Origin: a virus
DNA length: 19,309 bases
Virus record (IMG/VR): IMGVR_UViG_3300029725_000137
Span: 1 to 19,309 of that record
Reading direction: 5' to 3' (one strand)
Both the position numbers and the translations under genes were made by a program. Below the pieces are notes generated by a model that ran no database searches, was not told the origin of the DNA, and saw nothing but the letters and a program-made list of their open reading frames with translations. This document shows positions 1-14,513 of this stretch, one piece after another. The first letter of the stretch is position 1. The number at the start of each line of letters is the position of its first letter.

Positions 1-2058
1 TCAGGGTAACTGGTTGATTTCCACGACAGCGGTCTGGGCATAGTGGTGGCCGACAAAAACCCACACTTGCCGGGGTTGCCCGGTCGTGTTGGGGGCAAGC
101 GTCAGGGTGATTTGGCCGCCGCCGGCTGGTATCTGCTCCGCGGATTGGCTGCACCATACGGCGGCGGGGTCATGCCCGCACATGGTATCGTTCAGCACAT
201 AGATAGCTTCGGAGAGGACGGAAGACGCCGTCAATGTCACGTCGCCGCCAGAGGCCGGCACTTCATGCGCAGAAGCCGTTACTTCCGGAACCGGTTTAGG
301 AGTCACACCCTCCATTACCGTGTCCTTCATGAGGACCCAGGAGTTGGTTATGCCCAGTGAGGGTGCATTGTCTATCCTTATCCCTCCCATACGGAGGCCC
401 GCCTGATAAGTCCCGCTGACTTCGTGTGCCTTGAATTTGGTTGTAAGGCATGCTGTGTTGCCGGCGCCCCAAAAGGAGGAAGCCATATCCATTACATATT
501 GCTTGTCCACAAACAAGGCCCAGCGATTGTAAATCTCCTGGTCATCGGGGTTGGGTGGCGTCATGGCCGCGGAGACGTAGGTAAAAGCCGGAGCCAATGC
601 CCAAACATAATGGGAATCTACCTTGAGGGGTCCGTAAAACGTCCCCCTTATCAAGGCCGACTTATTGCTTCCCAGATACCCCATAGGGTAGGTAGTGATC
701 TGATACGCCGGCACATTGTCGCCCCCTCTCGCTCCATTGACTGTATTGTTTTGCGGATACCTGTAATTTGCATTATCCCAGGCATAATCCACCCAGTGCA
801 CAGGATGTGAATAGCAGGACGCCAGCGGATCGGTAGTCGTAGCGTACCCCTGGGCAGTGCTGCCCAAGAGAACCGACACCTTGTCGGAGCCAAGTATCCG
901 CCAGACGCAAGCGGCAGCATATTCGTTATTTCTATTGTTGCCCATGTAATTGGCAAATTTCCATGATCCCGTGGATTTGCCGATAACAGAAACACCCCCT
1001 GCCGCCGTCATGGTTAATACCATATCGCACAAGTCGTTATTAAATACTCCCTTCTTTAGAGAGGCGTTAGCGGTAGCAATTGTGTAGCTTGTGTTCAACG
1101 ACTGGGCTTCCACCAAGGCGGTCACCCATGACGGAATGACGGATTCCAGAAAATAGTTGGCGCGGCTCCATTGGCCGGCAGCCGTCATGGTTATCATTCC
1201 CTCATAGGAAATGGCATTCTGCCCTGTGGCGGGCAGCGGCACACGGACTCCTTCGATTGCGGTGATCGTGGCGTCGTAGGTCTGCGGCTGCGTCCAGTTA
1301 TAAGACCCGTCCGGATTAACATCCCCGGTATCTCCTTTCTCGCCACGGGGCCCTTGGGGACCCTCCGGCCCCTCGGGTCCTTGCGGGCCGGCAGGACCCT
1401 GCGGTCCGGTTTCTCCAATGTCGCCTTTTGGTCCCTGCTCTCCGGTAGCTCCCTGAGGACCTTGAGGCCCTGCGTCACCCCTGGGACCCTGAGGGCCTTC
1501 GGGGCCGGTTTCGCCCGGTTCCCCCTGCGGGCCTGGTGGGCCTTCGGGACCGGCGTCTCCTTTGGGGATGGTAAACGACAACAGATAAGAGCCCGCTTCC
1601 GAGCCTTTCACGGCTTCCGCTGCGGCAGGAGTGCCAGGCTCGCCGGTAGTGACCCGGTCCACCGAAAGATTGAAATTCTCGGCGTACTTCTTGGCCTGCT
1701 CCGCGTACCAGGCGGCGCTTGACGCATTATCAAGCACGACTTGCACGCATCCGCTTTCTTCCGGCAGCTGCACGACGACCGCACCCGCTACCGCCTGCTG
1801 CTCGTCCGGCAAGTCCGGCGTCACCCGGCCCGAAGAAACAAAGCATCCGTAGAGAAGCGGGCTTTCCTCGTTGCCGTCATCCATGAAGACATCGTAGGAC
1901 CACATGCCCGCGGGCACCGAGGCCCACGAAATCACGCCGTTGCCCTCGTCGTCACGGGAAAAGCCGAACTCGGCAATACCCGTCTTGAGGCGAACGGCTC
2001 CGCGCAGGGTGACGCCGCCCATATCGACGGGATCTCCCTGGAAATCCACCACGCGCAC
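1..2058 (-). CDS. Collagen-like tail fibre / receptor-binding protein with a C-terminal BACON/Ig-like beta-sandwich
   Basis: 685-aa ORF with GTG at 2058..2056 and TGA at 3..1. It has a long uninterrupted G-X-Y run ([37 protein letters not shown]...GEKGDTG). The last ~90 aa (..[57 protein letters not shown]) resemble a BACON-type domain. The frame stays open upstream and has an in-frame AGG at 2118..2116, a possible alternative start. Confidence 0.8.
1324..1560 (-). repeat. Collagen-like Gly-X-Y triplet repeat region inside the fibre gene
   Basis: About 26 consecutive GXY triplets in the translated product. At the DNA level this shows as a GC-rich ggn-ccn periodicity. Confidence 0.9.
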
Positions 2059-2125
2059 GACCAGTGACTGGTTGAGTCCCGTGACGGTCCGTATATCATA
2101 TTTGCCTGCCTGTTGCCTGAAGCGG

Positions 2126-2171: not shown

Positions 2172-2783
2172 TCAGGAAGCGGGCGTCGTCGTCACATCCT
2201 GAATATTGGACGGCGTGGCCTGGTACTGACCCTTGTAATCCATCTCAAATTCAAACTGTGCGGACGCCACCGCGGTTGTGTGTTCCGGATCCTGCAGGAG
2301 ACGCAAGGCGCCATGCCCGATGTAGGTAAGGAATATCTCGCCAATATCGTTCTGATACCACAGTTGCAGGTAGCCTTCTATTTTATTGTCGCCGCCGTGC
2401 CCGATGGCGACGGCTTCCTTGCCGTTGGCCGGGGCTGCGCCCAGCGCAAAAGAGAGCTGGAAGTATTCCGGGGACATATCCGGCGTCGTGAAGGTCATGC
2501 GCTTGCCGGTAGTGGTGTTTTTGCGCTGAACACGGTAGCCTAGAGCTCCACCGTAGAAGCGCGTCACTTCTCCTTCCACCTGCGTAGCTACGGATTGGAA
2601 GGCTCCCAGCAAGCCAAAGCTCACCCAGGGAAATTCGGGGCCAGCCGTCGGATCGACGGGGGGCGCGGTAGGAGGCTCCGGGAACTGATAGGGTCCGGTA
2701 ACGTAGGAGGCGCCGCCTTCCTCGGTCACCTTGATGCCGTCAGGGAGAAAAATCGCCAGGACGCCCGTAATCTGCGGAGTCAC
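2172..2783 (-). CDS. Phage structural protein of unknown role; position suggests tail or baseplate
   Basis: 203-aa ORF with GTG at 2783 and TGA at 2174..2172. It has a Pro-rich segment ([19 protein letters not shown]) and is followed by a hairpin. An in-frame AGG at 2822..2820, five codons after the upstream gene's TAA, is an alternative start. Confidence 0.6.
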
Positions 2784-2837
2784 ATTGCGATTGCTGTAAG
2801 TAGGGTCGTAAGTATTAGGCCTGATGCTTGAATGGGT

Positions 2838-4396: not shown

Positions 4397-5523
4397 TTGA
4401 CGGGTAAAACGTAAGGGGTTGACAGTTCCACATTGAGGGCTCCGGCGACGTCTTCCACTTTCCTGACGTGCCCGGAGGTAATGGGATAGGTGAATTCCCC
4501 CTCTTCCTTTGGGGAAACGGGGATATACTGGCGGGAGGACGCGGCGGCCACGTCTGCGGGCCGGGCGTACCAATCACCTTCCGGCTCGGAAGCCAGACGG
4601 TCCAGCAGGCGGTCGAGGTAAAGTGATGCCAGCGTTCCGGCCACGGCTCCCCCGGCTGCCGCCAGACGGAACGCCTGGGCCTGGCGCAAGGGGATCTCTT
4701 CTGGGAAATCCCCGGACAGGACTTCCGCCAGTTCCGCGTCCGTGTAAGGGCGCGTCCCGTTCGGGTCGGTGTAGGTAAAGGTGGTATTGCGGTCGTTCTC
4801 GGTTTTAACACGCACGGCGTCTTTCAGGATGCGGCGGATCTTCTTTTTATTGGCGTTCGTGATACTTATAGTATTGCTTTCCAGAGTGGCGTTGAAGCTG
4901 GCGGGAGCGAGACGGACGCGGGAAACCTCCAGTCCGGCCGCGCGGGCTTCTTCGGCTCCCACGGGGGCAATGTTCATGCCGGAAAGGTAATCGAAGGGAG
5001 GATAAGGCGTTCCGAAGCGCGAGAGGCGAATCCAGATGTCGGAGGCCGCCAGGGCGTAGCCGACGGTTTCGCCGCGGATGAAACCAGAAGAAACTGCCTC
5101 CGTGGCCTCGTTCTCCAATCCGGTTCTGGCACGGTTCCAGCGTTCAGCCCAGTAGCGCGGGTCTTCCCGGCCCTGGGAACGGTAAAATTTAAAGGCGGCG
5201 GTGTCGTCGTCCTGTGTCCAGTTATACCAGTTCCGGTAGCCGTGCGCCATGGCCGCATTGGTTTCCATGACGACCTGGATACGAAGCCAGGATGACAAAT
5301 CCTGAATGCCGCCCTGCCCCGTTGCCGGCGGTCGGTAGCCCTGCTGGCGCAGGGTTTCGCGGATGGACTGCTGCGCCTCTTCATAGCTCAGGGCGCCGGA
5401 GGCGACCTTCCCCGCCTTTTCCTCAAAGTCGGACAGGATAACGCCGGGCTCCACGCCGGACACGAAAAAGGCGCGTTCGGCGTAGTCGTTGGCGATCATC
5501 TCCATCTGGGCGGCGGTCATCAT
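4387..5523 (-). CDS. Putative minor head / head-morphogenesis protein, weakly Mu F / SPP1 gp7-like
   Basis: 378 aa, with an ATGA overlap to the upstream gene at 5520-5523. The segment ..WLRIQVVMETNAAMAHGYRNWYNW.. resembles the (A)RTE..A...G motif of the Mu F family. That family assignment is from memory and low confidence. Confidence 0.55.
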   Translation of the reverse strand: MMTAAQMEMIANDYAERAFFVSGVEPGVILSDFEEKAGKVASGALSYEEAQQSIRETLRQQGYRPPATGQGGIQDLSSWLRIQVVMETNAAMAHGYRNWYNWTQDDDTAAFKFYRSQGREDPRYWAERWNRARTGLENEATEAVSSGFIRGETVGYALAASDIWIRLSRFGTPYPPFDYLSGMNIAPVGAEEARAAGLEVSRVRLAPASFNATLESNTISITNANKKKIRRILKDAVRVKTENDRNTTFTYTDPNGTRPYTDAELAEVLSGDFPEEIPLRQAQAFRLAAAGGAVAGTLASLYLDRLLDRLASEPEGDWYARPADVAAASSRQYIPVSPKEEGEFTYPITSGHVRKVEDVAGALNVELSTPYVLPVKWL

Positions 5524-6941: not shown

Positions 6942-6974
6942 TGTTCTTTGTCTTTCTATTGATTAGTGTTGATG

Positions 6975-7406
6975 CTACACAGCTGCGACCTGGTAGGAGG
7001 GGACGAATCCGATTTCCACCATGCCCTGTTCCCACTGGGCGTGGATCACGCGGGCATAGACAGTTTCTCCGCTGGCGGCGGCCTTCCATGCTCCGTTGGC
7101 CGTGATGGTGAGGGGCGTTCCGGCGTTGATCGTGCCCGGCGTGTCGGAAAGAGCTGCCTTGATCAGGCCTGCATACATGCCGACGAGAGCGGCGACGCAG
7201 GTTCCCTGGTTGGGCTGCCCTTGCAGGACTACGCCGAGCAGCTGTGTCTGCGTAGGGATGGTGGACAACGGCGTCCCGATAAACTCGGGGATGTCCGGGT
7301 TGGCGGTCAGCGCCACGACGGTTCCTTCCTGTCCGCACAGGTCAACACCCTCCGGGGTGTTGAAATAGACGATGGCGCTTTTCTGGGTTACATTGAGTGA
7401 TGGCAT
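6975..7406 (-). CDS. Head decoration-position protein, DUF2190-like
   Basis: 143 aa with ATG at 7406 and TAG at 6977..6975. It lies between protease/scaffold and major capsid, the position lambda D occupies. Confidence 0.55.
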   Translation of the reverse strand: MPSLNVTQKSAIVYFNTPEGVDLCGQEGTVVALTANPDIPEFIGTPLSTIPTQTQLLGVVLQGQPNQGTCVAALVGMYAGLIKAALSDTPGTINAGTPLTITANGAWKAAASGETVYARVIHAQWEQGMVEIGFVPSYQVAAV

Positions 7407-7426: not shown

Positions 7427-8542
7427 TTATCGTTCGGAGGTTACAATGTAGCCTTCTTCGGTGGCTTTCTGGAAAGCGTCGTACCGCTTCATGCCGCCCT
7501 TCATCAATTCGTCCACGCGGTTCCGGAATCCGTCGATGGATTCCTTTTTGCGGAACGGATTGGGCGGCGCCTGGGTGGCACGGCGGTTCAAGGACGTTCT
7601 TCCAACTGGATTGCGGCGGCTTTCGTCAACAACGTCATGCGGCGGCTTTGACTTCGCGGACCGATTGAGAGCCTTGACAAAGGCGCCCAGTGCGGCGGGG
7701 CTTTCCCGGAGAGAGTTTTTCAGCTCTTCCCGGCGTTCTTCCGTAAACTCCTCGCGTTCTTCCTCGTCCAGTGCGTTTTCATACGTACTGACGGCTTCGT
7801 CCACTTCGGCGTTCACGGCATTCTTCTCTCTCTTTTCCAGATCGAGAAGTTCATCCACGCGGCGGAGGATTTCCCTGGACATGTCATCGGTTCCGTCAAA
7901 TTCGACGTCCAATTTATCGAGCAGGGAATCAAACAGAGCCCGCTGGGCTCGGTCCATTTCCTTCGCCGGGTATTCTTCGGCGTTTTCTTTCATCGTTTTG
8001 TCTTGGTTGGTTTCCCCCTCTTCGGGGCTTTTGTTTTCGCCCCCGTCCTTGTCGGGGGAAGTCTGTCTATTGATGAGCGGGCGCTTGCCCTTGATGCGCG
8101 GACGGTTGGTCAACGCGAATCCCGTCAGGCGAGTGGGAGTGTAAACGCCGTCCTCCAAGGTCATGCCGTCCATATACTCCGTAGACGATTGCGTGTACTC
8201 CTTGTCGATAAGCATTTGCAGTCCGCGTGGCGTCCAGTCGATAAAACCGTACAATTCCAGGCTGCCTGACGGATCCCGGTAGGTATCCAGTTTTTTCAGC
8301 CAGCCCAGGGCCCGCGTATCGCGGCTGACGTCATGGCTGAGGTGATCGCCGTCAATCAGCATGCCGGGGCCATCGAAAGTGCGGGAATTGAATTCATCCA
8401 CCATTCTTTGAATGACCTCTTCATCAATGCGAAGGAGCGCGGGTCCTTCCCCGTAGTCAACCTCGTGATCGCCGGATTTCTCGATGTGATACCATCCGTT
8501 CTTCGGATCGCTTAAATCATTGATTTGTTTTGTACTGATCAT
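7427..8542 (-). CDS. Mu-like prophage protein I family head protease fused to an acidic scaffold-like C-terminal half
   Basis: N-terminus ..NGWYHIEKSGDHEVDYGEG..LLRIDEEVIQRMVDEFNS..GMLIDGDHLSHD.. matches the Mu gpI protease family pattern as I recall it. The C-terminal ~190 aa is highly charged and coiled-coil-like (scaffold-like). ATG at 8542 overlaps the portal 3' end by 26 nt. Confidence 0.7.
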   Translation of the reverse strand: MISTKQINDLSDPKNGWYHIEKSGDHEVDYGEGPALLRIDEEVIQRMVDEFNSRTFDGPGMLIDGDHLSHDVSRDTRALGWLKKLDTYRDPSGSLELYGFIDWTPRGLQMLIDKEYTQSSTEYMDGMTLEDGVYTPTRLTGFALTNRPRIKGKRPLINRQTSPDKDGGENKSPEEGETNQDKTMKENAEEYPAKEMDRAQRALFDSLLDKLDVEFDGTDDMSREILRRVDELLDLEKREKNAVNAEVDEAVSTYENALDEEEREEFTEERREELKNSLRESPAALGAFVKALNRSAKSKPPHDVVDESRRNPVGRTSLNRRATQAPPNPFRKKESIDGFRNRVDELMKGGMKRYDAFQKATEEGYIVTSER

Positions 8543-9881
8543 CGTAAAACCCTTTCATCAGCGCATTGTTGATAAGCTCCCTCAATTGTTCAAAAGCGTC
8601 GGGCGGTATACCGTTATCTTCAGCTTCCCGGTTGGATGCTGCCACAGGAGGAGCGGCATCCCGGGTGTCCTCGACGGACATGCCGAGCTTCTCTTCAACT
8701 TCCGTCTTTTCCAACCGCACGCCTCCATCCGCAAGAGCGGCGATTTCTTCCGCCTTCTGCAGCGGCGTCTGGACGGTATCAAAGGTGATCTGGAGTCGGG
8801 CCAGCGGTTCTGCGTCTCCCAGCACAAGAGGATTAACGGCAGTATTAAAGGCTTCCGCCACTTTGCTGCACACAGCGGACACGACGGAATTCCAGCTATC
8901 TGTATGCGCTCCCCCGGCCAGGGTGCCGGATCCCGATTCGTTCAACACAGTCAGAGTGCCGGCCATCACAAAGCGTACCTGATCCTTGTCGGCAAGATTG
9001 ATACGCGAGAGGAAATAGTTTTCATTGATGGAGGATGCCTTGAGGGGTTCCGCCGTACATCCGGGAGGCAGGACGACGGATGCACCTGACTTGAGTTCTT
9101 CGCAGGCGCGCTCAAGTGCGTCCATGACAGCGGCGCTTGCTTCTTTGGGAGCCGTGATGATGACCGGGGCGGACCCGTAGCGGTCCATGTGGTTGTCCCA
9201 GACAATCTTGGCATGGTTGCGCTCAAAGGAGGCTCGGGAGGCAGGAAACAGGATGGGATAGGGATGCTCCATCACCACAAGCGTTTCCTCTTCCACGCTT
9301 TCTCCCGTATCCACGCCAATATGGCATTGTGGGTTAAACTGCCACTCGTTCAGCTCGCCCGGGCGCACCCAATAACGCTGCGGAATAAATTCAAACCTCC
9401 GGCCCCAGGCGTCCTCGATAAATTGCAAATGGGCGTAGCCGTAAAATACCGCGGAAGCGAGTTGCCCAAACGCCGGCTGAAGGCCGTTAATGGAGTTGTA
9501 GAATTCTTCCAGGGCGTTTTTCTGTCTCTGTGCTTCGGGGCTGTCATTGGCGGCGTCAATTTTCCATCCCTGCATGGACACGCTTTCAATCATCCGCGAA
9601 TAGAGCATGCCCAGCATGCCGTCCGAATAGATTACCTCGTCCCAAATGAGCATTTGCCGCGCAAAGGCTCCCCTTCTGGCCTCATTGCGGGCATCAATGA
9701 GGGTTTGCAGGCCCGCCCCCTGGAGAGGATCCCAGTATTCAAACCATTGGGGGCGGCCAGGAAGGCGGCTCCGGTCCGTTAAGGCGCGTCGGGCAAGGTC
9801 TGTCTCAAGCTCCTTGATTCTGGTCTCTTGTTGTGCGACCAGCTTGGGAGCGTTGATGATATTTTTGACGGCGTTTAACCT
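8517..9881 (-). CDS. Portal protein, Mu gp29 / DUF935-like, with proposed AGG start
   Basis: The track ORF is 8517..9653 (ATG). The frame continues open upstream and reads [AGG]LNAVKNIINAPKLVAQQETRIKELETDLARRALTDRSRLPGRPQWFEYWDPLQGAGLQTLIDARNEARRGAFARQ-MLIWDEVIYSDG.., with no in-frame ATG/GTG/TTG. An in-frame AGG lies at 9881..9879, 23 nt downstream of the tRNA 3' end. This start gives 454 aa, a typical portal size. Confidence 0.72.
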   Translation of the reverse strand, partial: RLNAVKNIINAPKLVAQQETRIKELETDLARRALTDRSRLPGRPQWFEYWDPLQGAGLQTLIDARNEARRGAFARQMLIWDEVIYSDGMLGMLYSRMIESVSMQGWKIDAANDSPEAQRQKNALEEFYNSINGLQPAFGQLASAVFYGYAHLQFIEDAWGRRFEFIPQRYWVRPGELNEWQFNPQCHIGVDTGESVEEETLVVMEHPYPILFPASRASFERNHAKIVWDNHMDRYGSAPVIITAPKEASAAVMDALERACEELKSGASVVLPPGCTAEPLKASSINENYFLSRINLADKDQVRFVMAGTLTVLNESGSGTLAGGAHTDSWNSVVSAVCSKVAEAFNTAVNPLVLGDAEPLARLQITFDTVQTPLQKAEEIAALADGGVRLEKTEVEEKLGMSVEDTRDAAPPVAASNREAEDNGIPPDAFEQLRELINNALMKGFYDDQYKTNQ

Positions 9882-9904: not shown

Positions 9905-9978
9905 TGGTTGCAGGGGGAGGAGTTGAACCTCCGACACGGGGACAGGAACCCCGTATGATACCGTTTCACCACCCTGCG
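9905..9978 (-). tRNA. tRNA with anticodon CCU, formally tRNA-Arg(CCT), carrying initiator-tRNA-type acceptor and anticodon stems
   Basis: 74-nt cloverleaf folded by hand. Acceptor CGCAGGG/CCCTGCA has 6 Watson-Crick pairs plus a C1-A72 mismatch. Then U8 G9, D-stem GUGA/UCAU, D-loop AACGGUA, A26. Anticodon stem is CGGGG/CCCCG and the loop is UUCCUGU, with anticodon CCU corresponding to plus-strand agg at 9944-9946. Variable loop UGUC, T-stem GGAGG/CCUCC, T-loop UUCAACU, discriminator A73, and an encoded CCA. Confidence 0.9.
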
Positions 9979-9994
9979 ATTGAATATACATCAA

Positions 9995-10023
9995 TACATA
10001 TAGATATGTTGATATATTGTCAA
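9995..10023 (-). promoter_or_regulatory. Candidate sigma70-type promoter dedicated to the tRNA
   Basis: On the minus strand, TTGACA (10023..10018) is followed by a 17-nt spacer and TATGTA (10000..9995). This lies in a 47-bp AT-rich, partly palindromic spacer between the terL stop (10026) and the tRNA 5' end (9978). Confidence 0.45.
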
Positions 10024-10025
10024 CC

Positions 10026-11399
10026 CTAATACCTGCCGATGGAACGATTTCTTTTTGGTCTTGTGACATACCAGGCTCCAAGCTCCCTGACCAAGCCGCT
10101 GTGTTTTCGTGCATGCCACGCCATGACAAGAGCGTCGGCCCGGTCGGGAGAACGAACTCCACGCTTTGCCATGTCCTCCTTGCTCTCGATTTTGACACGC
10201 CCGATCGCGTCTGTCTGGACGCGCGGTGCGACCAGCTGTTCGATTGTGTCCTCGTCGATGTCGAGAATGAGCTCTTTTTCCTCGATCGCACGGGCGAGCG
10301 CTCTCCAGGCCTGGGCGCGCAGATTGACAAAGGCCTGCGTATCGTCGGACGGAAAGCCGCCCCGGTAGGAGTGTATCGGGAAGCCCTCGGCCCGGAAGTC
10401 GTCGATGATGGGGAGCCCGAGTCCATCACCGTCGGCAAAGATACTGTCGGCGGGAATGCCAAGCTCGGCGGCTTTGCGCCGGAACCGTCCGCGGGCTCCG
10501 ACGGTGTCGGGGGCTGACCAGTGGTCGGCAATGAAGAAGCGATTGCCCTGCCCGGCCGCAAAGACGTTTTCGTCGCCCCCGGCGGCGAAGTCAAAGCCGC
10601 CGCAGGTCTCCCCGGTGTCCAAAAAGGGAGGCGGGTTGTTGAGCAGCTCCATGATGGCGCGGCGGGAAATGACGGATTGCCCGTCAAGGTCCGTGAATTC
10701 GCCGAGGATGGCCGAGCGGTAGAAGGAGGACTGTTCGCCGTATTCTTTTTTCAGGCGTTCGGCCTTGCCTGGATCGTTGATTTCGATGTGCGGGCAATCC
10801 TCGTATTTAACGCGGATTTTGTAGTAGAGGGATGAATTTTTGTGGAAGCAGTCGTAAAAGGTTCCGGAATCGGCACCCGGCGACGAGGTGATGAACGCGT
10901 TGAAGAGCGTGCAGCGGGAAACAGCGGTGAAGATGGGGTCCGGGATGGTCTTGGCTTCATCGAGGACGTAAAAGACCGGGTCAACGTCGGGCGAGATTTT
11001 CGGGTGCCATCCTTCCGCGCGTCCGGCGTTGTCGGTGGAGAATCCCACGGCAAATCCTCCTTCCGGCGTGCGGATTTCGGTTTTGTTGAATGTCCAGCCG
11101 TCAAAGAAGGGGTTATCCATATAACGGCGAAGCGCGGGAAAGAGCTGTTTTTCTACCTGCATCCACGATGATGACGTGACTGGCACCTGACCCCGAGGAA
11201 AATAGGTAAGGAAACACAGGATTGCCGGCGCAATGGATAGGCTCGTCTTTCCCGATCCGTTCGGAGCAACCATGGCCACGCTTCGGCCTCCCAGCCTCAC
11301 CTTTCCGAGAAGCAACGCCTTGATGGCCTCGATTTGCCAGGGATAAGGATCGAGTCCGAGGATGTGACGGAGGAAGAAGCTGACGGGGAGATGATTCCT
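10026..11399 (-). CDS. terL: Terminase large subunit with proposed AGG start
   Basis: Walker A is APNGSGKT, Walker B-like is VFYVLDEA, and the C-terminal half looks like the nuclease domain (..DFAAGGDENV.., ..ADGDGLG.., ..SPDRADAL..). The track ORF starts at TTG 11315. The frame is open to the TAA at 11408..11406, and the upstream part reads [AGG]NHLPVSFFLRHILGLDPYPWQIEAIKA-LLLGKV... The PYPWQ motif, typical of TerL N-termini, lies upstream of the first canonical start. In-frame AGG at 11399..11397. Confidence 0.8.
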   Translation of the reverse strand, partial: RNHLPVSFFLRHILGLDPYPWQIEAIKALLLGKVRLGGRSVAMVAPNGSGKTSLSIAPAILCFLTYFPRGQVPVTSSSWMQVEKQLFPALRRYMDNPFFDGWTFNKTEIRTPEGGFAVGFSTDNAGRAEGWHPKISPDVDPVFYVLDEAKTIPDPIFTAVSRCTLFNAFITSSPGADSGTFYDCFHKNSSLYYKIRVKYEDCPHIEINDPGKAERLKKEYGEQSSFYRSAILGEFTDLDGQSVISRRAIMELLNNPPPFLDTGETCGGFDFAAGGDENVFAAGQGNRFFIADHWSAPDTVGARGRFRRKAAELGIPADSIFADGDGLGLPIIDDFRAEGFPIHSYRGGFPSDDTQAFVNLRAQAWRALARAIEEKELILDIDEDTIEQLVAPRVQTDAIGRVKIESKEDMAKRGVRSPDRADALVMAWHARKHSGLVRELGAWYVTRPKRNRSIGRY

Positions 11400-11405
11400 G
11401 CTCGG

Positions 11406-11921
11406 TTAAGGGTGGAGTTTGCCGGCAATGGTTTCCAGCGCGGTTTTCTCGTCTTCCTGCAGCTGGGCGAGCTGCTCGGGGTCCAGCGTGATTTTCCGTT
11501 CCAGCGGCGCCCCGGGAACGCCGGCGACGTCCTGGCGGACCCGGTCTCCAAATTTTTCGGGAGCGAAACGGGCAGCGACTTTCAGCCGGGTTTCAATGGC
11601 GAGCTTCTTGGCAGCGACGGAGGCGGATCCGCAGTCGGGGTCGAGGGCAACCTGGGCAGCGGCATCTGACAAAGACTGACACTCGTCGAGCATGGCTTCC
11701 GACTGCGCTTCCCGCGCGCGCTGAATGAGTTTACAAAACTCTTCCCGTTCGTGCCTCCATCTCCAGACAGTTAAAACCTCCGGCATGTGATCGTCCGAGC
11801 AAATGGACTTCATCGTTTCCCCGTTGGCTAAGCGAGAGGCTATCTCGGCAGCTAACGCCTCCGTATAGAGGCTGGGCCGTCCTATTTTCTTGTTGGTGGT
11901 AGGTGATTGCTTCTTTTTCCT
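11406..11921 (-). CDS. terS: Terminase small subunit with proposed AGG start
   Basis: The C-terminal part ..RAREAQSEAMLDE..AAKKLAIETRLKVAARFAPEKFGDRV.. matches a widespread TerS family pattern. The track ORF starts at ATG 11813. The frame is open to the TAG at 11930..11928 and reads [AGG]KKKQSPTTNKKIGRPSLYTEALAAEIASRLANGET-MKSICSDDHMPEVLTVWRW.., the classic HTH N-terminus (GRPS.YT.E.A..I..RLA.GES) of this family. No in-frame ATG/GTG/TTG is present, and there is an in-frame AGG at 11921..11919. Confidence 0.75.
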   Translation of the reverse strand, partial: RKKKQSPTTNKKIGRPSLYTEALAAEIASRLANGETMKSICSDDHMPEVLTVWRWRHEREEFCKLIQRAREAQSEAMLDECQSLSDAAAQVALDPDCGSASVAAKKLAIETRLKVAARFAPEKFGDRVRQDVAGVPGAPLERKITLDPEQLAQLQEDEKTALETIAGKLHP

Positions 11922-12026: not shown

Positions 12027-12545
12027 GTGAAAAAGTGTCCTATATGCGGCAAGGATGTTCCGCCGCGCTACGGATCGCGGGAAAGAGTGTACTGCTCCCG
12101 CGCATGTCTCAAGGCACACTATGACGCCGCCTGGGAAACTATCACCTGCCCCGTGTGCGGAAAGGAATTCCGCGCTAAAAAACTCTTTCGGCGGAAACAT
12201 TGCTCTTATCCTTGCGCGAATGCAGCCCAGAAGGGGCGGAAAATCACGTCAGAAGCCTTTCAGGAGGCTTGCAAGCATCGGGGAGTTCCCGGCCCCAGGA
12301 AGCACCCCAGAACAGGGAAATTTGAGACAAATTGCCATGCAAAGATATGGCTGCTGGAATCCCCGGATGGAGAGAAAGTCACGGCTCGGAATCTCAAACT
12401 CTACATGATAGACCGGTACGGCGAAGAAAAGGGGAAAAAGGTCTATAAGCTCCTGGTTTGTGCTGCACAACGCTTCCGTAAATGCGGACATGGCGGCGGC
12501 GCCGGATGGCGGGTACTTGCCGCCCCTGCCGTCCCGAAGGAATAA
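12027..12545 (+). CDS. Tandem zinc-ribbon (FCS/TRASH-like) protein with a C-terminal phage DNA-binding-like tail
   Basis: 172 aa starting at GTG. It has two copies of CPxCGK-x(11-13)-(Y/H)CSxxC: CPICGKDVPPRYGSRERVYCSRAC and CPVCGKEFRAKKLFRRKHCSYPC. The C-terminal ..CHAKIWLLESPDGEKVTARNLKLYM...GWRV resembles tails seen on phage homing-endonuclease-like ORFs. That resemblance is from memory and low confidence. Confidence 0.6.
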   Translation: MKKCPICGKDVPPRYGSRERVYCSRACLKAHYDAAWETITCPVCGKEFRAKKLFRRKHCSYPCANAAQKGRKITSEAFQEACKHRGVPGPRKHPRTGKFETNCHAKIWLLESPDGEKVTARNLKLYMIDRYGEEKGKKVYKLLVCAAQRFRKCGHGGGAGWRVLAAPAVPKE

Positions 12546-12576
12546 AAAAGGGCAGCCCCGAAGAACCGCCCTTTTT
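12544..12576 (+). terminator. Candidate bidirectional-looking intrinsic terminator
   Basis: An A-run (12544-12549) precedes stem GGGCAG (12550-12555) / CCGCCC (12566-12571), which has one mismatch and a 10-nt loop. It is followed by TTTTT (12572-12576), directly after the stop of 12027..12545. Confidence 0.45.
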
Positions 12577-12746
12577 AAGGGAATGAGCGTTTCCGCTCGT
12601 GCTGATCTTGTGATCGTTTTAATCCACAGCCCCGGAGGGCTGACGTGTTCCTAGAAAGAACAAATTACTTCTCTCATATTTTGCGCCAGACCGCAAGCAA
12701 AAACGGAATGACAACTTTTTTCACCTTTTTTCATTTTTTCTCTTGC

Positions 12747-12769
12747 GTTACTATAAATTTTATAGTAAC
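12747..12769. promoter_or_regulatory. Perfect 23-bp palindrome, a candidate operator, in the AT-rich promoter region of the acidic-protein gene
   Basis: GTTACTATAAA-T-TTTATAGTAAC has 11-bp arms, all 11 positions complementary. It contains TATAAA/TATAGT -10-like hexamers and lies 75 bp upstream of ATG 12844. Confidence 0.5.
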
Positions 12770-12843
12770 TTAATTTTGTTGACGGGAGGTAAGGGACCGA
12801 ACGAAGACATAATCCAAACAACAAAACTAGAAAGAACAAGACA

Positions 12844-13167
12844 ATGAACGATAACAAAATCATCACCACGGAAGACGGAGAAGAAATCAACCTGACCGCT
12901 CTTGAACGTGAATTCGGCAGCTACGACTTTGAAGGCAAGACCTATTATGCAGCGCGCCAGATGGAATACACCAACAGGGTTTTCCCTGGCTCCTACGCGG
13001 ACAAATACGAGGACGGCAGCTACATGGAAGAATGGTCTGCTCCTGGCTATGATGCAGAAGGGAACAAGGTTGAAATCTTCATGGCCTTTGAACAAATGAC
13101 GGGCGAAGAAATTGACGGAGAAAACCTCAACTGGACGCAGGACGCTTCCCGCGTTGAAGCTCGCTAA
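12844..13167 (+). CDS. Small, strongly acidic protein (107 aa), function unknown
   Basis: ATG start. By my count there are about 25 D/E versus 9 K/R. It has its own AT-rich upstream region and a downstream hairpin. Confidence 0.65.
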   Translation: MNDNKIITTEDGEEINLTALEREFGSYDFEGKTYYAARQMEYTNRVFPGSYADKYEDGSYMEEWSAPGYDAEGNKVEIFMAFEQMTGEEIDGENLNWTQDASRVEAR

Positions 13168-13176
13168 ATAACCCCC

Positions 13177-13204
13177 AGGGGCGGCAAAGCCGCCCCTCCT
13201 TTCT
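13177..13204 (+). terminator. Candidate terminator or attenuating hairpin
   Basis: GGGGCGGC-AAA-GCCGCCCC (13177-13195) followed by TCCTTTCTC. The U-tract is poor, and the next ATG is only 5 nt further on, so it is probably leaky. Confidence 0.4.
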
Positions 13205-13208
13205 CACT

Positions 13209-14513
13209 ATGACCGCACAAGAATTTATCGACTGGCTTCAAACTGCCAACAATCTTCCAAATCCTACCCAAGCTGTAAAAAGGGCCGCGCAGATGATGCG
13301 GGTGACGGAAGATGTTATTTGGAAATGGTTAAATACTAAAAAACCATACCCCACGCCTGAATACATGCAATTACTCATGGATTTATTGCATGAGAAATAC
13401 CGAGAAAAGAGGTTTTACCGCATTCTTTCTCACGAACAGCGTGAAGAGATGCGGTCCATGTTGGGCAAAAAACCTGATCTGGAAATCGCCGAGCTACTCG
13501 GAATAGCGCGCGTCACGGTCCAGACTGAACGCTATAAATTAGGTATCAAAAAGTATTGCAGCCCTGAAGCAATCCGCATCCAACATGATGAAGAGCTTAT
13601 TGCAGTGCTCGGAAAAATTCCTGACTCGGAGTGTGCCAAGAAGTTTGGATACTCAAATTCCAGAGTAGCCTACCTTAGAAAGAAATTAGGGATTAAGTCA
13701 TATAAGGGGCCGCGTAAACCCCGTCAGCCACGAGACCCAAATAAACCACACAAGAAAAAAGAGTATCCCGAAGAGTTAATTAACATGCTTGGAAAGACCC
13801 CGGATGATGAAATTGCTAAAAAATTCGGTTATTCCAAGGCAGGAATTGCGCTTATTAGAAAAAAGATGGGCATTCCATCATTACCTGATACTAAATTCCC
13901 CAAAATGAAACGCGAAGAAATGCTATCTATGCTTGGAAAATTTCCTGATAGCGAAATTGCTGAAAAGTTTGGAATATCGCTTAATTTTGTAGCGCGGAAC
14001 CGTAGAAAATTAAAAATTGCTCAAGCTCCATACTCCCCCATTAAGGATGCGGACAAGGATATGATTCTTAATTTATTGGGAAGAGTATCAGATTTAAAAA
14101 TTTCAAAAAAAACAGGGTACAGCCCATATGTAATTAAAAAATTTAGAGAACAGAACAAAATTAAGCCTTTCAATAAAAGCATTTTAGAAAGATTTTCACC
14201 GGACCAACGTAAAAAACTCTTATCTATGCTTGGGAAAGTTTATGATAGAGTAATAGCCGAAAAATTTAATATTGATAACGAGGTAGTAAGAAGAATTAGA
14301 CAGAAATTGAATGTTCCGGCATTACGTGAGGAAAAAAGCTTGCAAGAAACAATAGAAAGGGACGAATACATTAAATCCCTGCTGGGCACAATGACTGATA
14401 AAGAAGTCGCTAATAAAACAGGCAAATCAATACAAGTTATCGGAAAAGCAAGGAGAAAATTAAATATCCCGGCGTTTGATACAAGGGGTCGGTCTACAAA
14501 GAAACAATCTTGA
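13209..14513 (+). CDS. Multi-HTH DNA-binding protein with an N-terminal HTH plus 7 tandem GerE / sigma-70-region-4-like repeats
   Basis: 434 aa with 7 repeats of the pattern (E/D)x(M/L)(L/I)xxLGKxPDxEIAxKFGxSxxxVxxxRRKLGI(P/K). Examples are LGKKPDLEIAELLGIARVTVQTERYKLGI, LGKIPDSECAKKFGYSNSRVAYLRKKLGI, LGKTPDDEIAKKFGYSKAGIALIRKKMGI, LGKFPDSEIAEKFGISLNFVARNRRKLKI, LGRVSDLKISKKTGYSPYVIKKFREQNKI, LGKVYDRVIAEKFNIDNEVVRRIRQKLNV and LGTMTDKEVANKTGKSIQVIGKARRKLNI. The period is 48-60 aa. The DNA is visibly AT-richer than the rest of the window. Confidence 0.8.
   Translation: MTAQEFIDWLQTANNLPNPTQAVKRAAQMMRVTEDVIWKWLNTKKPYPTPEYMQLLMDLLHEKYREKRFYRILSHEQREEMRSMLGKKPDLEIAELLGIARVTVQTERYKLGIKKYCSPEAIRIQHDEELIAVLGKIPDSECAKKFGYSNSRVAYLRKKLGIKSYKGPRKPRQPRDPNKPHKKKEYPEELINMLGKTPDDEIAKKFGYSKAGIALIRKKMGIPSLPDTKFPKMKREEMLSMLGKFPDSEIAEKFGISLNFVARNRRKLKIAQAPYSPIKDADKDMILNLLGRVSDLKISKKTGYSPYVIKKFREQNKIKPFNKSILERFSPDQRKKLLSMLGKVYDRVIAEKFNIDNEVVRRIRQKLNVPALREEKSLQETIERDEYIKSLLGTMTDKEVANKTGKSIQVIGKARRKLNIPAFDTRGRSTKKQS

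Follow-up and report, generated by a model that had tools for sequence, protein, structure and literature searches.

Late-gene region and its AGG codons

The window analysed here is a whole stretch of 19,309 nt of viral DNA (IMG/VR record IMGVR_UViG_3300029725_000137), and is the late-gene region of a temperate phage of Akkermansia muciniphila; the closest GTDB genome is a metagenome-assembled genome of this species. Its minus strand carries the genes for the small and large terminase (terS and terL), a tRNA with the anticodon CCU, and the genes for the portal, the major capsid protein and two tail proteins (Table 1). By a stop-to-stop frame survey of the window late genes, we found that these six protein-coding genes have no canonical start codon at their conserved N-terminus, and have an in-frame AGG there instead. 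The tRNA, located between terL and the portal gene, has hallmarks of a bacterial initiator and an anticodon complementary to AGG. We propose that AGG is an additional start codon of this phage, read by its own initiator-type tRNA(CCU), a reading to which we give a probability of about 0.8 on comparative sequence evidence.

Relatives were collected from Logan and ENA contigs, GTDB genomes, IMG/VR, GenBank and 60 human-gut metagenome contigs, for a census of ~70 related Akkermansia phage loci, in which per-gene counts differ with locus coverage. The proteins of phage L072 (TerL 67% identical, no tRNA) were aligned to the window as a canonical-start reference. The early proteins of L072 have no similarity to the early region of the window.

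Table 1. Positions of the features of the window that are discussed in the text.
Feature	Position	Strand	Remarks
terS (small terminase)	11406..11921	-	proposed AGG start 11921-11919, stop TAA 11408-11406; Pfam Sf6_terminase, E 1e-21; PHROG terS
Spacer CCGAGC, 6 nt	11400..11405	-	terS stop to terL AGG
terL (large terminase), 457 aa from AGG	10026..11399	-	PHROG phrog_2, E 1e-24
Proposed terL AGG start	11397..11399	-	invariant in 73 loci, 14 upstream contexts
Y-P-W-Q motif, TerL ATPase	11334..11345	-	upstream of Walker A
TTG, first canonical start codon in the terL frame	11313..11315	-	judged not to be the real start
Walker A, APNGSGKT	11244..11267	-	from the translation
Promoter-like element TTGACA-17 nt-TATGTA	9995..10023	-	right after the terL stop, directly upstream of the tRNA
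Initiator-type tRNA, anticodon CCU, templated CCA	9905..9978	-	ARAGORN: tRNA-Arg(CCU); sole tRNA of the window
Portal	8517..9881	-	AGG 9881-9879, 21 nt past the tRNA 3' end; aligns exactly with the L072 portal TTG
Major capsid, 307 aa	6018..6941	-	AGG 6941-6939, exactly at the L072 capsid ATG; PHROG major head protein
Late structural gene g2822 (tail region)	2172..2822	-	AGG 2822-2820, exactly at the ATG of L072 gene 18555-19196
Tail fibre-like gene g2118, runs off the window	1..2118	-	AGG 2118-2116, exactly at the ATG of L072 gene 19243-21126

The terS-terL junction

The TAA that ends terS is followed in the same frame by CCG AGC AGG AAT CAT CTC CCC GTC, and the terL frame stays open for 459 codons after it, up to the TAG at 10028-10026. 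A first-pass annotation of this DNA had remarked on a frame shared by the two genes and interrupted by a single TAA, on an AGG two codons past it, on a first canonical start (TTG) 28 codons past the AGG, and on a Y-P-W-Q motif that precedes this TTG. These placements are borne out by the sequence and its translation, the AGG being codon 3 and the TTG (11315-11313) codon 31 after the TAA, whereas the distance given from the TTG to Walker A (14 residues) has to be corrected, as this motif starts 16 residues after the Leu encoded by the TTG. The stretch from the AGG to the first canonical start translates as NHLPVSFFLRHILGLDPYPWQIEAIKA within TerL, and a frame scan found no in-frame ATG, GTG or TTG between AGG 11399 and TTG 11315.

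One way to account for this arrangement, raised in the same annotation, would be read-through of the TAA to make a TerS-TerL fusion, with terL having no start of its own. The two genes are indeed in the same frame, with one stop and two codons between them, both in the window and in 54 of 66 loci, where the spacer from the terS stop to the AGG is 6 nt long. In the other 12 loci, however, the spacer measures 5 nt, terS and terL lie in different frames, and the AGG is retained in all of them across three distinct junction sequences. Because the frames differ in these 12 loci, read-through is excluded as a conserved mechanism and the shared frame of the window is incidental and probably goes back to an ancestral junction of the stop-then-start type. 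The terS stop among relatives is either TAA or TAG, with no conserved context, and the spacer is variable in sequence, the two codons after the stop changing freely and conservation extending from the AGG onward. Moreover, terL is a separate gene in L073, L074 and L195 (with a called terL start that falls on the terS end in L073 and L195), and the AGG pattern is also found at the portal (after the tRNA), capsid and tail genes, which have no in-frame upstream open reading frame. A fusion made by read-through is thus contradicted on several sides, and we consider it extremely improbable.

At terS itself, the gene as listed from its first ATG spans 11813..11406. This ATG (11813) is 36 codons past the AGG, and its use would take away the conserved N-terminal region GRPSLYTEALAAEIASRLANGE and cut the helix-turn-helix region. 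The terS AGG is kept at or beside the same position in related loci.

The N-terminus of TerL

We infer from sequence comparison that TerL begins at AGG 11399 and includes the Y-P-W-Q motif. The PHROG phrog_2 profile aligns from residue 19 of the AGG-extended protein, and the best 120 TerL homologues are ~450-470 aa long and start 0-5 residues from the AGG position. Across 25 TerL homologues Y21 is invariant and Q24 nearly invariant, as is the case for the columns of Walker A (A47, N49, G50, G52, K53 and T54 invariant, S51 nearly so). The AGG also aligns with Met1 of homologue P0005, in an alignment column that contains one Met.

The AlphaFold model of TerL has a predicted local distance difference test score (pLDDT) of 87, with block means of 94-96 for residues 11-40, and contains a helix at residues 8-15 and a second one at residues 22-37, with Y-P-W-Q at the N-terminal edge of the latter. 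A sequence search of TerL against PDB chains matched the nuclease domain only and a fold search was required, which gave Sf6 gp2 TerL as the best PDB match of the model (E 2e-20) and also retrieved the TerL of HK97 and T4 gp17. According to profile, alignment and fold match, the protein has the features of the TerL class, i.e. an N-terminal ATPase with a Q-type motif and Walker A, and a C-terminal RNase-H-like nuclease.

It could nevertheless be argued that TerL is truncated, starting from TTG 11315 or from a later GTG or ATG, or that the prophage is defective and its terL in decay, and automatic gene callers do choose such downstream starts (P0006, P0008). The TTG would fall inside helix 22-37, so that the Y-P-W-Q motif would be lost. 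Such a start would remove helix 8-15, the invariant Tyr and the nearly invariant Gln, in a part of the model with block-mean pLDDT of about 94-96. The 27 codons between the AGG and the TTG are conserved as protein in many loci. Nor is the position of the first canonical start conserved, as it shifts among loci between a TTG at +9, a GTG at +22 and a TTG at +28 codons. Decay is difficult to reconcile with the abundance of this phage type, for which independent assemblies provide at least 70 loci, and with the deposition of a complete phage genome. We regard a truncated or decaying TerL as very unlikely.

Proposed AGG starts in other late genes

Four further late genes give the same picture. The next canonical start lies 76 codons past the AGG in the portal gene, 62 codons past it in the capsid gene, 20 in g2118, which has PHROG tail fibre matches, and 13 in g2822, where the AGG is kept in L003, L157, L171, L177 and L205. 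Counted from its AGG, the capsid protein has 307 aa, the same length as the L072 capsid. Canonical starts of L072 coincide exactly with a window AGG in four genes (portal, capsid, g2822 and g2118), and six further late genes start with ATG in both the window and L072. Internal AGG codons are rare in the late genes of the phage (17 of 3757 codons, 0.45%), and the chance of finding at least four AGG among 11 aligned start positions is 1e-7 to 2e-5. The stretches between the AGG and the next canonical start change mostly at synonymous positions, with 26-30 synonymous vs 9-12 non-synonymous changes in the portal, 16 vs 1 in the capsid (against L003), and 5-7 vs 0 in the tail fibre gene.

These data also bear on the possibility that the normal initiator uses another rare start, for example the ATC of Ile15 in TerL (11363-11361), with AGG being part of a ribosome-binding element. 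Translation table 11 admits ATC and ATT as rare starts, and the AGG AAT of the window contains AGGA, which resembles a Shine-Dalgarno core. However, AGGA is not conserved, as the base that follows AGG can be A, C, G or T across genes and loci; none of the late genes has a Shine-Dalgarno sequence, and there is no downstream start at a suitable distance for such an element. Residues 4-14 of TerL, upstream of Ile15, are kept as protein among relatives, and an ATC start would leave unexplained the exact correspondence of AGG with ATG or TTG in the four other genes. Initiation at ATC therefore seems exceedingly unlikely to us.

No Shine-Dalgarno sequence was found upstream of the window late genes, whether they start with ATG or AGG, which suggests that initiation is Shine-Dalgarno-independent in this host. 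The leaders of the late genes (e.g. 8543-8582 and 6942-6981) are C/A-rich and poor in G (12-15% G).

Other explanations of the AGG codons were considered and discarded. A reassignment of AGG in elongation is not supported, internal AGG codons being rare and those of TerL falling in variable columns. A sequencing artefact was rejected because the same AGG codons occur in NCBI, ENA, Logan, IMG/VR and JGI assemblies, and a phage code with a reassigned stop codon because the late genes are uninterrupted frames and the sole tRNA has the anticodon CCU.

Distribution among related phages

The AGG start is invariant in terL in 73 loci (with 14 upstream contexts), in the portal gene in 68 (13 contexts) and in the capsid gene in 58, and the late genes that start with ATG remain ATG across related loci. 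The tRNA(CCU) is present in all 64 loci that have an AGG-start terL and span the terL-portal junction, the other nine ending before the junction, while the tRNA-less relatives L072 and L073 have ATG starts. Initiation of terL at AGG, as put forward in the first-pass annotation, is hence supported by its invariance in 73 loci, by five other late genes that would start in the same way, and by the presence of a cognate tRNA(CCU). In L074, which has the tRNA and a TerL 73% identical to that of the window, terL has an ATG that overlaps the terS stop, yet the portal gene starts at AGG, which indicates that start codons were switched gene by gene.

The same arrangement is found in Akkermansia phage DTMo-2021a (CP084202.1), a complete genome of 31.9 kb from host A. 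muciniphila NBRC 114322. Seven late genes start at AGG in this phage, and in its early open reading frames a canonical start is found close to the beginning of the frame. The GenBank record carries no annotation. In public gene calls for other loci (L001 2781-4229; L002 2817-3800; L194 687-1976), the portal gene begins at a GTG that lies within the tRNA, and the TerL called is truncated to 327 or 429 aa.

Two distant prophages of Verrucomicrobia with the same TerL family carry, downstream of terL, a tRNA with a CAU anticodon and C1xA72 (L014 14787-14861; L037 11781-11857). These tRNAs suggest that the ancestor of the group already had an initiator tRNA carried by the phage, and that the CCU tRNA derived from this CAU form by one base change.

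A sister locus, L194 (TerL 64% identical), is represented by a single contig of 6.8 kb and has an initiator-type tRNA at the same place (2035-2110), with C1xA72, A11:U24, three G:C pairs and an 8-nt anticodon loop, AUCCCUUA, in which ARAGORN predicts the anticodon CCCU. Its terL (593-599) has no canonical start before the Q motif, and opposite the window AGG it has the codon GGT with an A before it (AGGT). In the capsid start region (5036-5044), which also lacks a canonical start, an in-frame GGG (TGGG) is found at most two codons from the extrapolated start, and the portal region (2128-2134) contains AGGG and possibly lacks a canonical start. The starts of L194 may thus be GGG/GGU read by CCC, or four-base AGGN codons, going by this one contig. 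Targeted searches for further loci of this type gave nothing relevant.

The tRNA adjacent to terL

The tRNA lies 48 nt past the terL stop and 21 nt ahead of the portal reading frame, and has the sequence CGCAGGG-UG-GUGA-AACGGUA-UCAU-A-CGGGG-UUCCUGU-CCCCG-UGUC-GGAGG-UUCAACU-CCUCC-CCCUGCA-A-CCA. It scores 54.2 bits with the Rfam tRNA model (threshold 29), with pair 1:72 flagged as non-standard. Its initiator hallmarks include the C1xA72 mismatch, G2:C71, C3:G70, A73 and three G:C pairs in the anticodon stem, and these match the acceptor end and anticodon stem of E. coli tRNAfMet. In bacteria, a mismatch at 1:72 marks initiators and disfavours binding by EF-Tu. The tRNA(CCU) is initiator-like but departs from this class in two respects, as it has neither a CAU anticodon nor A11:U24. 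Nor does it qualify as an ordinary tRNA-Arg: of the arginine elements it has C35, U36 and A73, and lacks A20 and a paired 1:72.

We found 18 distinct 74-nt variants of this tRNA in 69 copies, all with identical C1, A72, G2, C3 and U33 and with the CCU anticodon. G70 and A73 are also invariant, and position 71 is a U in a single variant, where it forms a G-U pair. Nine pairs of the cloverleaf have compensatory changes (eight variants), values that were reached by none of 500 shuffles. In particular, the acceptor pairs 4:69, 6:67 and 7:66 covary, while 1:72 is CxA in every variant. The anticodon stem is CGGGG/CCCCG in the window, and its 30:40 pair is invariant among variants. This pattern suggests that the tRNA(CCU) is under selection as an initiator.

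An exact 14-mer search of IMG/VR with the D arm was unspecific, this arm being common to many phage tRNAs; after filtering, it yielded 12 CCU-tRNA loci, 11 of them having an acceptor stem of the window type and one being the L085 variant, as well as a control set. When 318 tRNAs predicted in 205 control loci were compared, C1xA72 was confined to CAU tRNAs of the initiator type and to the CCU/CCCU tRNAs. The tRNAs with the same D arm and other anticodons have a paired 1:72 in a register-fixed comparison, mostly U:A and once A:U, the exceptions being L150, with U-U, and L192, whose columns are probably shifted by one base.

Right after the terL stop, TTGACA and its spacing are kept in all close relatives (TTGACA-17 nt-TATRTR), so that the tRNA, together with the portal operon behind it, may have its own promoter. 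A consensus promoter scan gave instead an overlapping element, TCAACA-18-TATATT.

AGG as a proposed additional start codon

In the mechanism that we propose, the tRNA(CCU) would have kept an initiator body while its anticodon changed from CAU to CCU by a single A35-to-C substitution, and AGG likewise differs from ATG by one T-to-G change. The tRNA would be loaded into the ribosomal P site and pair with AGG to initiate terS, terL, portal, major capsid and the two tail genes, plus a seventh gene in CP084202.1. Such use of the P site is suggested by the co-occurrence of the tRNA with AGG-start genes and by an engineered precedent (see below). On its sequence features, the tRNA would be expressed, charged with an amino acid, formylated and employed in initiation. 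Rare internal AGG codons (0.45%) imply that there is little demand for the tRNA(CCU) in elongation, and these codons could keep their reading as Arg.

The amino acid carried would be either Arg or Met. C1-A72 is the major determinant for methionyl-tRNA formyltransferase, A73, G2-C71, C3-G70 and G4-C69 being minor ones, and formylation is independent of the attached amino acid (PMC9976931). The identity of tRNA-Arg for bacterial arginyl-tRNA synthetase (ArgRS) relies on A20, C35, U/G36 and A/G73, and E. coli methionyl-tRNA synthetase (MetRS) has been reported to mis-methionylate tRNAArg(CCU) (PMC9976931).

A number of observations weigh against initiation at AGG by the tRNA(CCU). At terL, the window AGG corresponds to residue 3 of the L072 TerL, whose start lies two codons before the AGG and is not an exact match, and in 20 of 66 loci a TTG is found 9 codons past the AGG and ahead of Y-P-W-Q, making a canonical terL start possible there. 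Concerning the tRNA, the D stem GUGA/UCAU has the elongator-like U11:A24 in all CCU variants, and not the A11:U24 of initiators; the outer G:C pairs of the anticodon stem are changed in some of eight variants (A29:U41 in two, U31-G39 in one); most variants (L001, L003, L085, L126 and others) have C55 in the T loop (UCCAACU), the window copy having U55; and position 37 can be G, A or U. C55 and a variable position 37 are unusual for a working tRNA, including one used in elongation. Charging also raises difficulties, as MetRS normally requires CAU and as position 20 is U (D loop AACGGUA), so that A20, the main E. coli ArgRS determinant, is missing. Finally, some promiscuous activity on AGG has been reported for the native initiator tRNA (bioRxiv 10.64898/2026.04.16.719103).

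This last report leads to the alternative that the AGG starts are weakly read by the host initiator tRNA(CAU), while the phage tRNA(CCU) serves in elongation only, at a rare Arg codon. Phages often carry tRNAs for rare codons, and the ARAGORN label of tRNA-Arg also favours an elongator. However, an unpaired 1:72 is kept in 18 of 18 variants while the neighbouring acceptor pairs covary, only 17 of 3757 internal codons of the late genes are AGG, and A20, a major Arg determinant, is absent. Near-cognate initiation would moreover probably be too weak for the high expression of a major capsid protein. On balance, we find this alternative unlikely, and retain AGG initiation by the phage tRNA.

Comparison with known systems

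To our knowledge, natural initiation always relies on a CAU initiator tRNA, non-AUG starts are near-cognate to it, and initiators with other anticodons exist in the laboratory only. In the published literature, of which subscription journals were thinly covered, we found neither a natural non-CAU initiator tRNA nor AGG starts in Akkermansia phages.

Bacterial tRNAfMet (CAU) shares with the phage tRNA C1xA72, G2:C71, C3:G70, A73, the G:C pairs 29-31:39-41 and a templated CCA, but the phage tRNA differs by its CCU anticodon, U11:A24, a 7-nt D loop, a 4-nt variable loop and its location in a late operon. Initiator-type tRNAs with C1xA72 acceptor ends are also found in other phages and prophages (L181, L158, L014 and L037), and those of L181 and L158 additionally share the D arm GUGA-AACGGUA-UCA; unlike the tRNA(CCU), these have kept CAU and presumably read normal ATG starts.

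The nearest functional analogue is an engineered one. Among 12 engineered E. coli pairs of initiator tRNA and start codon, AGG with i-tRNA(CCU) was the strongest in all strains, with 35- to 402-fold activity over the repressed state and a level above that of AUG in Nissle 1917 (bioRxiv 10.64898/2026.04.16.719103). This result indicates that a CCU/AGG pair functions in a bacterial initiation system. Engineered initiators (i-tRNA(CCU), the amber initiator tRNA(CUA) and the set of PMC11744186) resemble the phage tRNA in combining an initiator body with a new anticodon and a complementary non-AUG start; they are laboratory constructs, whereas the phage tRNA(CCU) is natural, conserved and coupled to essential late genes.

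Among natural systems, the nearest in spirit is the recoding of stop codons by phages. In gut phages with suppressor tRNAs (PMC10879173), a phage tRNA also alters the reading of a codon and late or structural genes are affected, but these tRNAs recode stops in elongation, while the tRNA(CCU) would recode the sense codon AGG at initiation only. Natural non-AUG starts are represented by GUG, UUG, the AUU of infC and the GTC of sigR (PMC5472188). These are near-cognate to CAU, read by the host and often weak or regulatory, in contrast to the phage AGG, which has a perfectly matching dedicated tRNA.

It appears likely that this family of Akkermansia (Verrucomicrobia) phages has a naturally extended initiation code, in which AGG and tRNA(CCU) form an orthogonal channel for late genes; the sister locus L194 may go further, which would suggest that the identity of the start codon can evolve in this clade. 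If so, this would represent a new variation of the genetic code, at initiation instead of at stop codons, and the freedom of start-codon identity to evolve would become testable. It would also provide phages with a new means of controlling their late genes and, perhaps, of escaping host interference with initiation; that the arrangement ties late-protein synthesis to a phage factor is a possible purpose, on which we can only speculate. In practical terms, it would explain why gene callers shorten terS, terL, portal and capsid or run the portal gene through the tRNA, and would provide synthetic biology with an orthogonal initiation pair in a therapeutically relevant gut bacterium.

Sequence context and a possible accessory module

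A C is present at position -1 of five of the six AGG starts (11922, 11400, 9882, 2823 and 2119) vs two of six ATG starts, and G37 of the tRNA could pair with it. In L074, the tRNA has U37 and the base before the portal AGG is A. The trend for C at -1 was noticed post hoc and is weak (P about 0.03).

Between terS and the replication genes, positions 12027-14513 of the plus strand have a G+C content of 43-50% vs 55-63% elsewhere in the window. The block, which looks like an inserted accessory module, codes for a zinc-finger/HNH-like protein and for one of 434 aa that consists of repeated units resembling helix-turn-helix motifs and weakly matches PHROG families of D5-like regulators and homing endonucleases.

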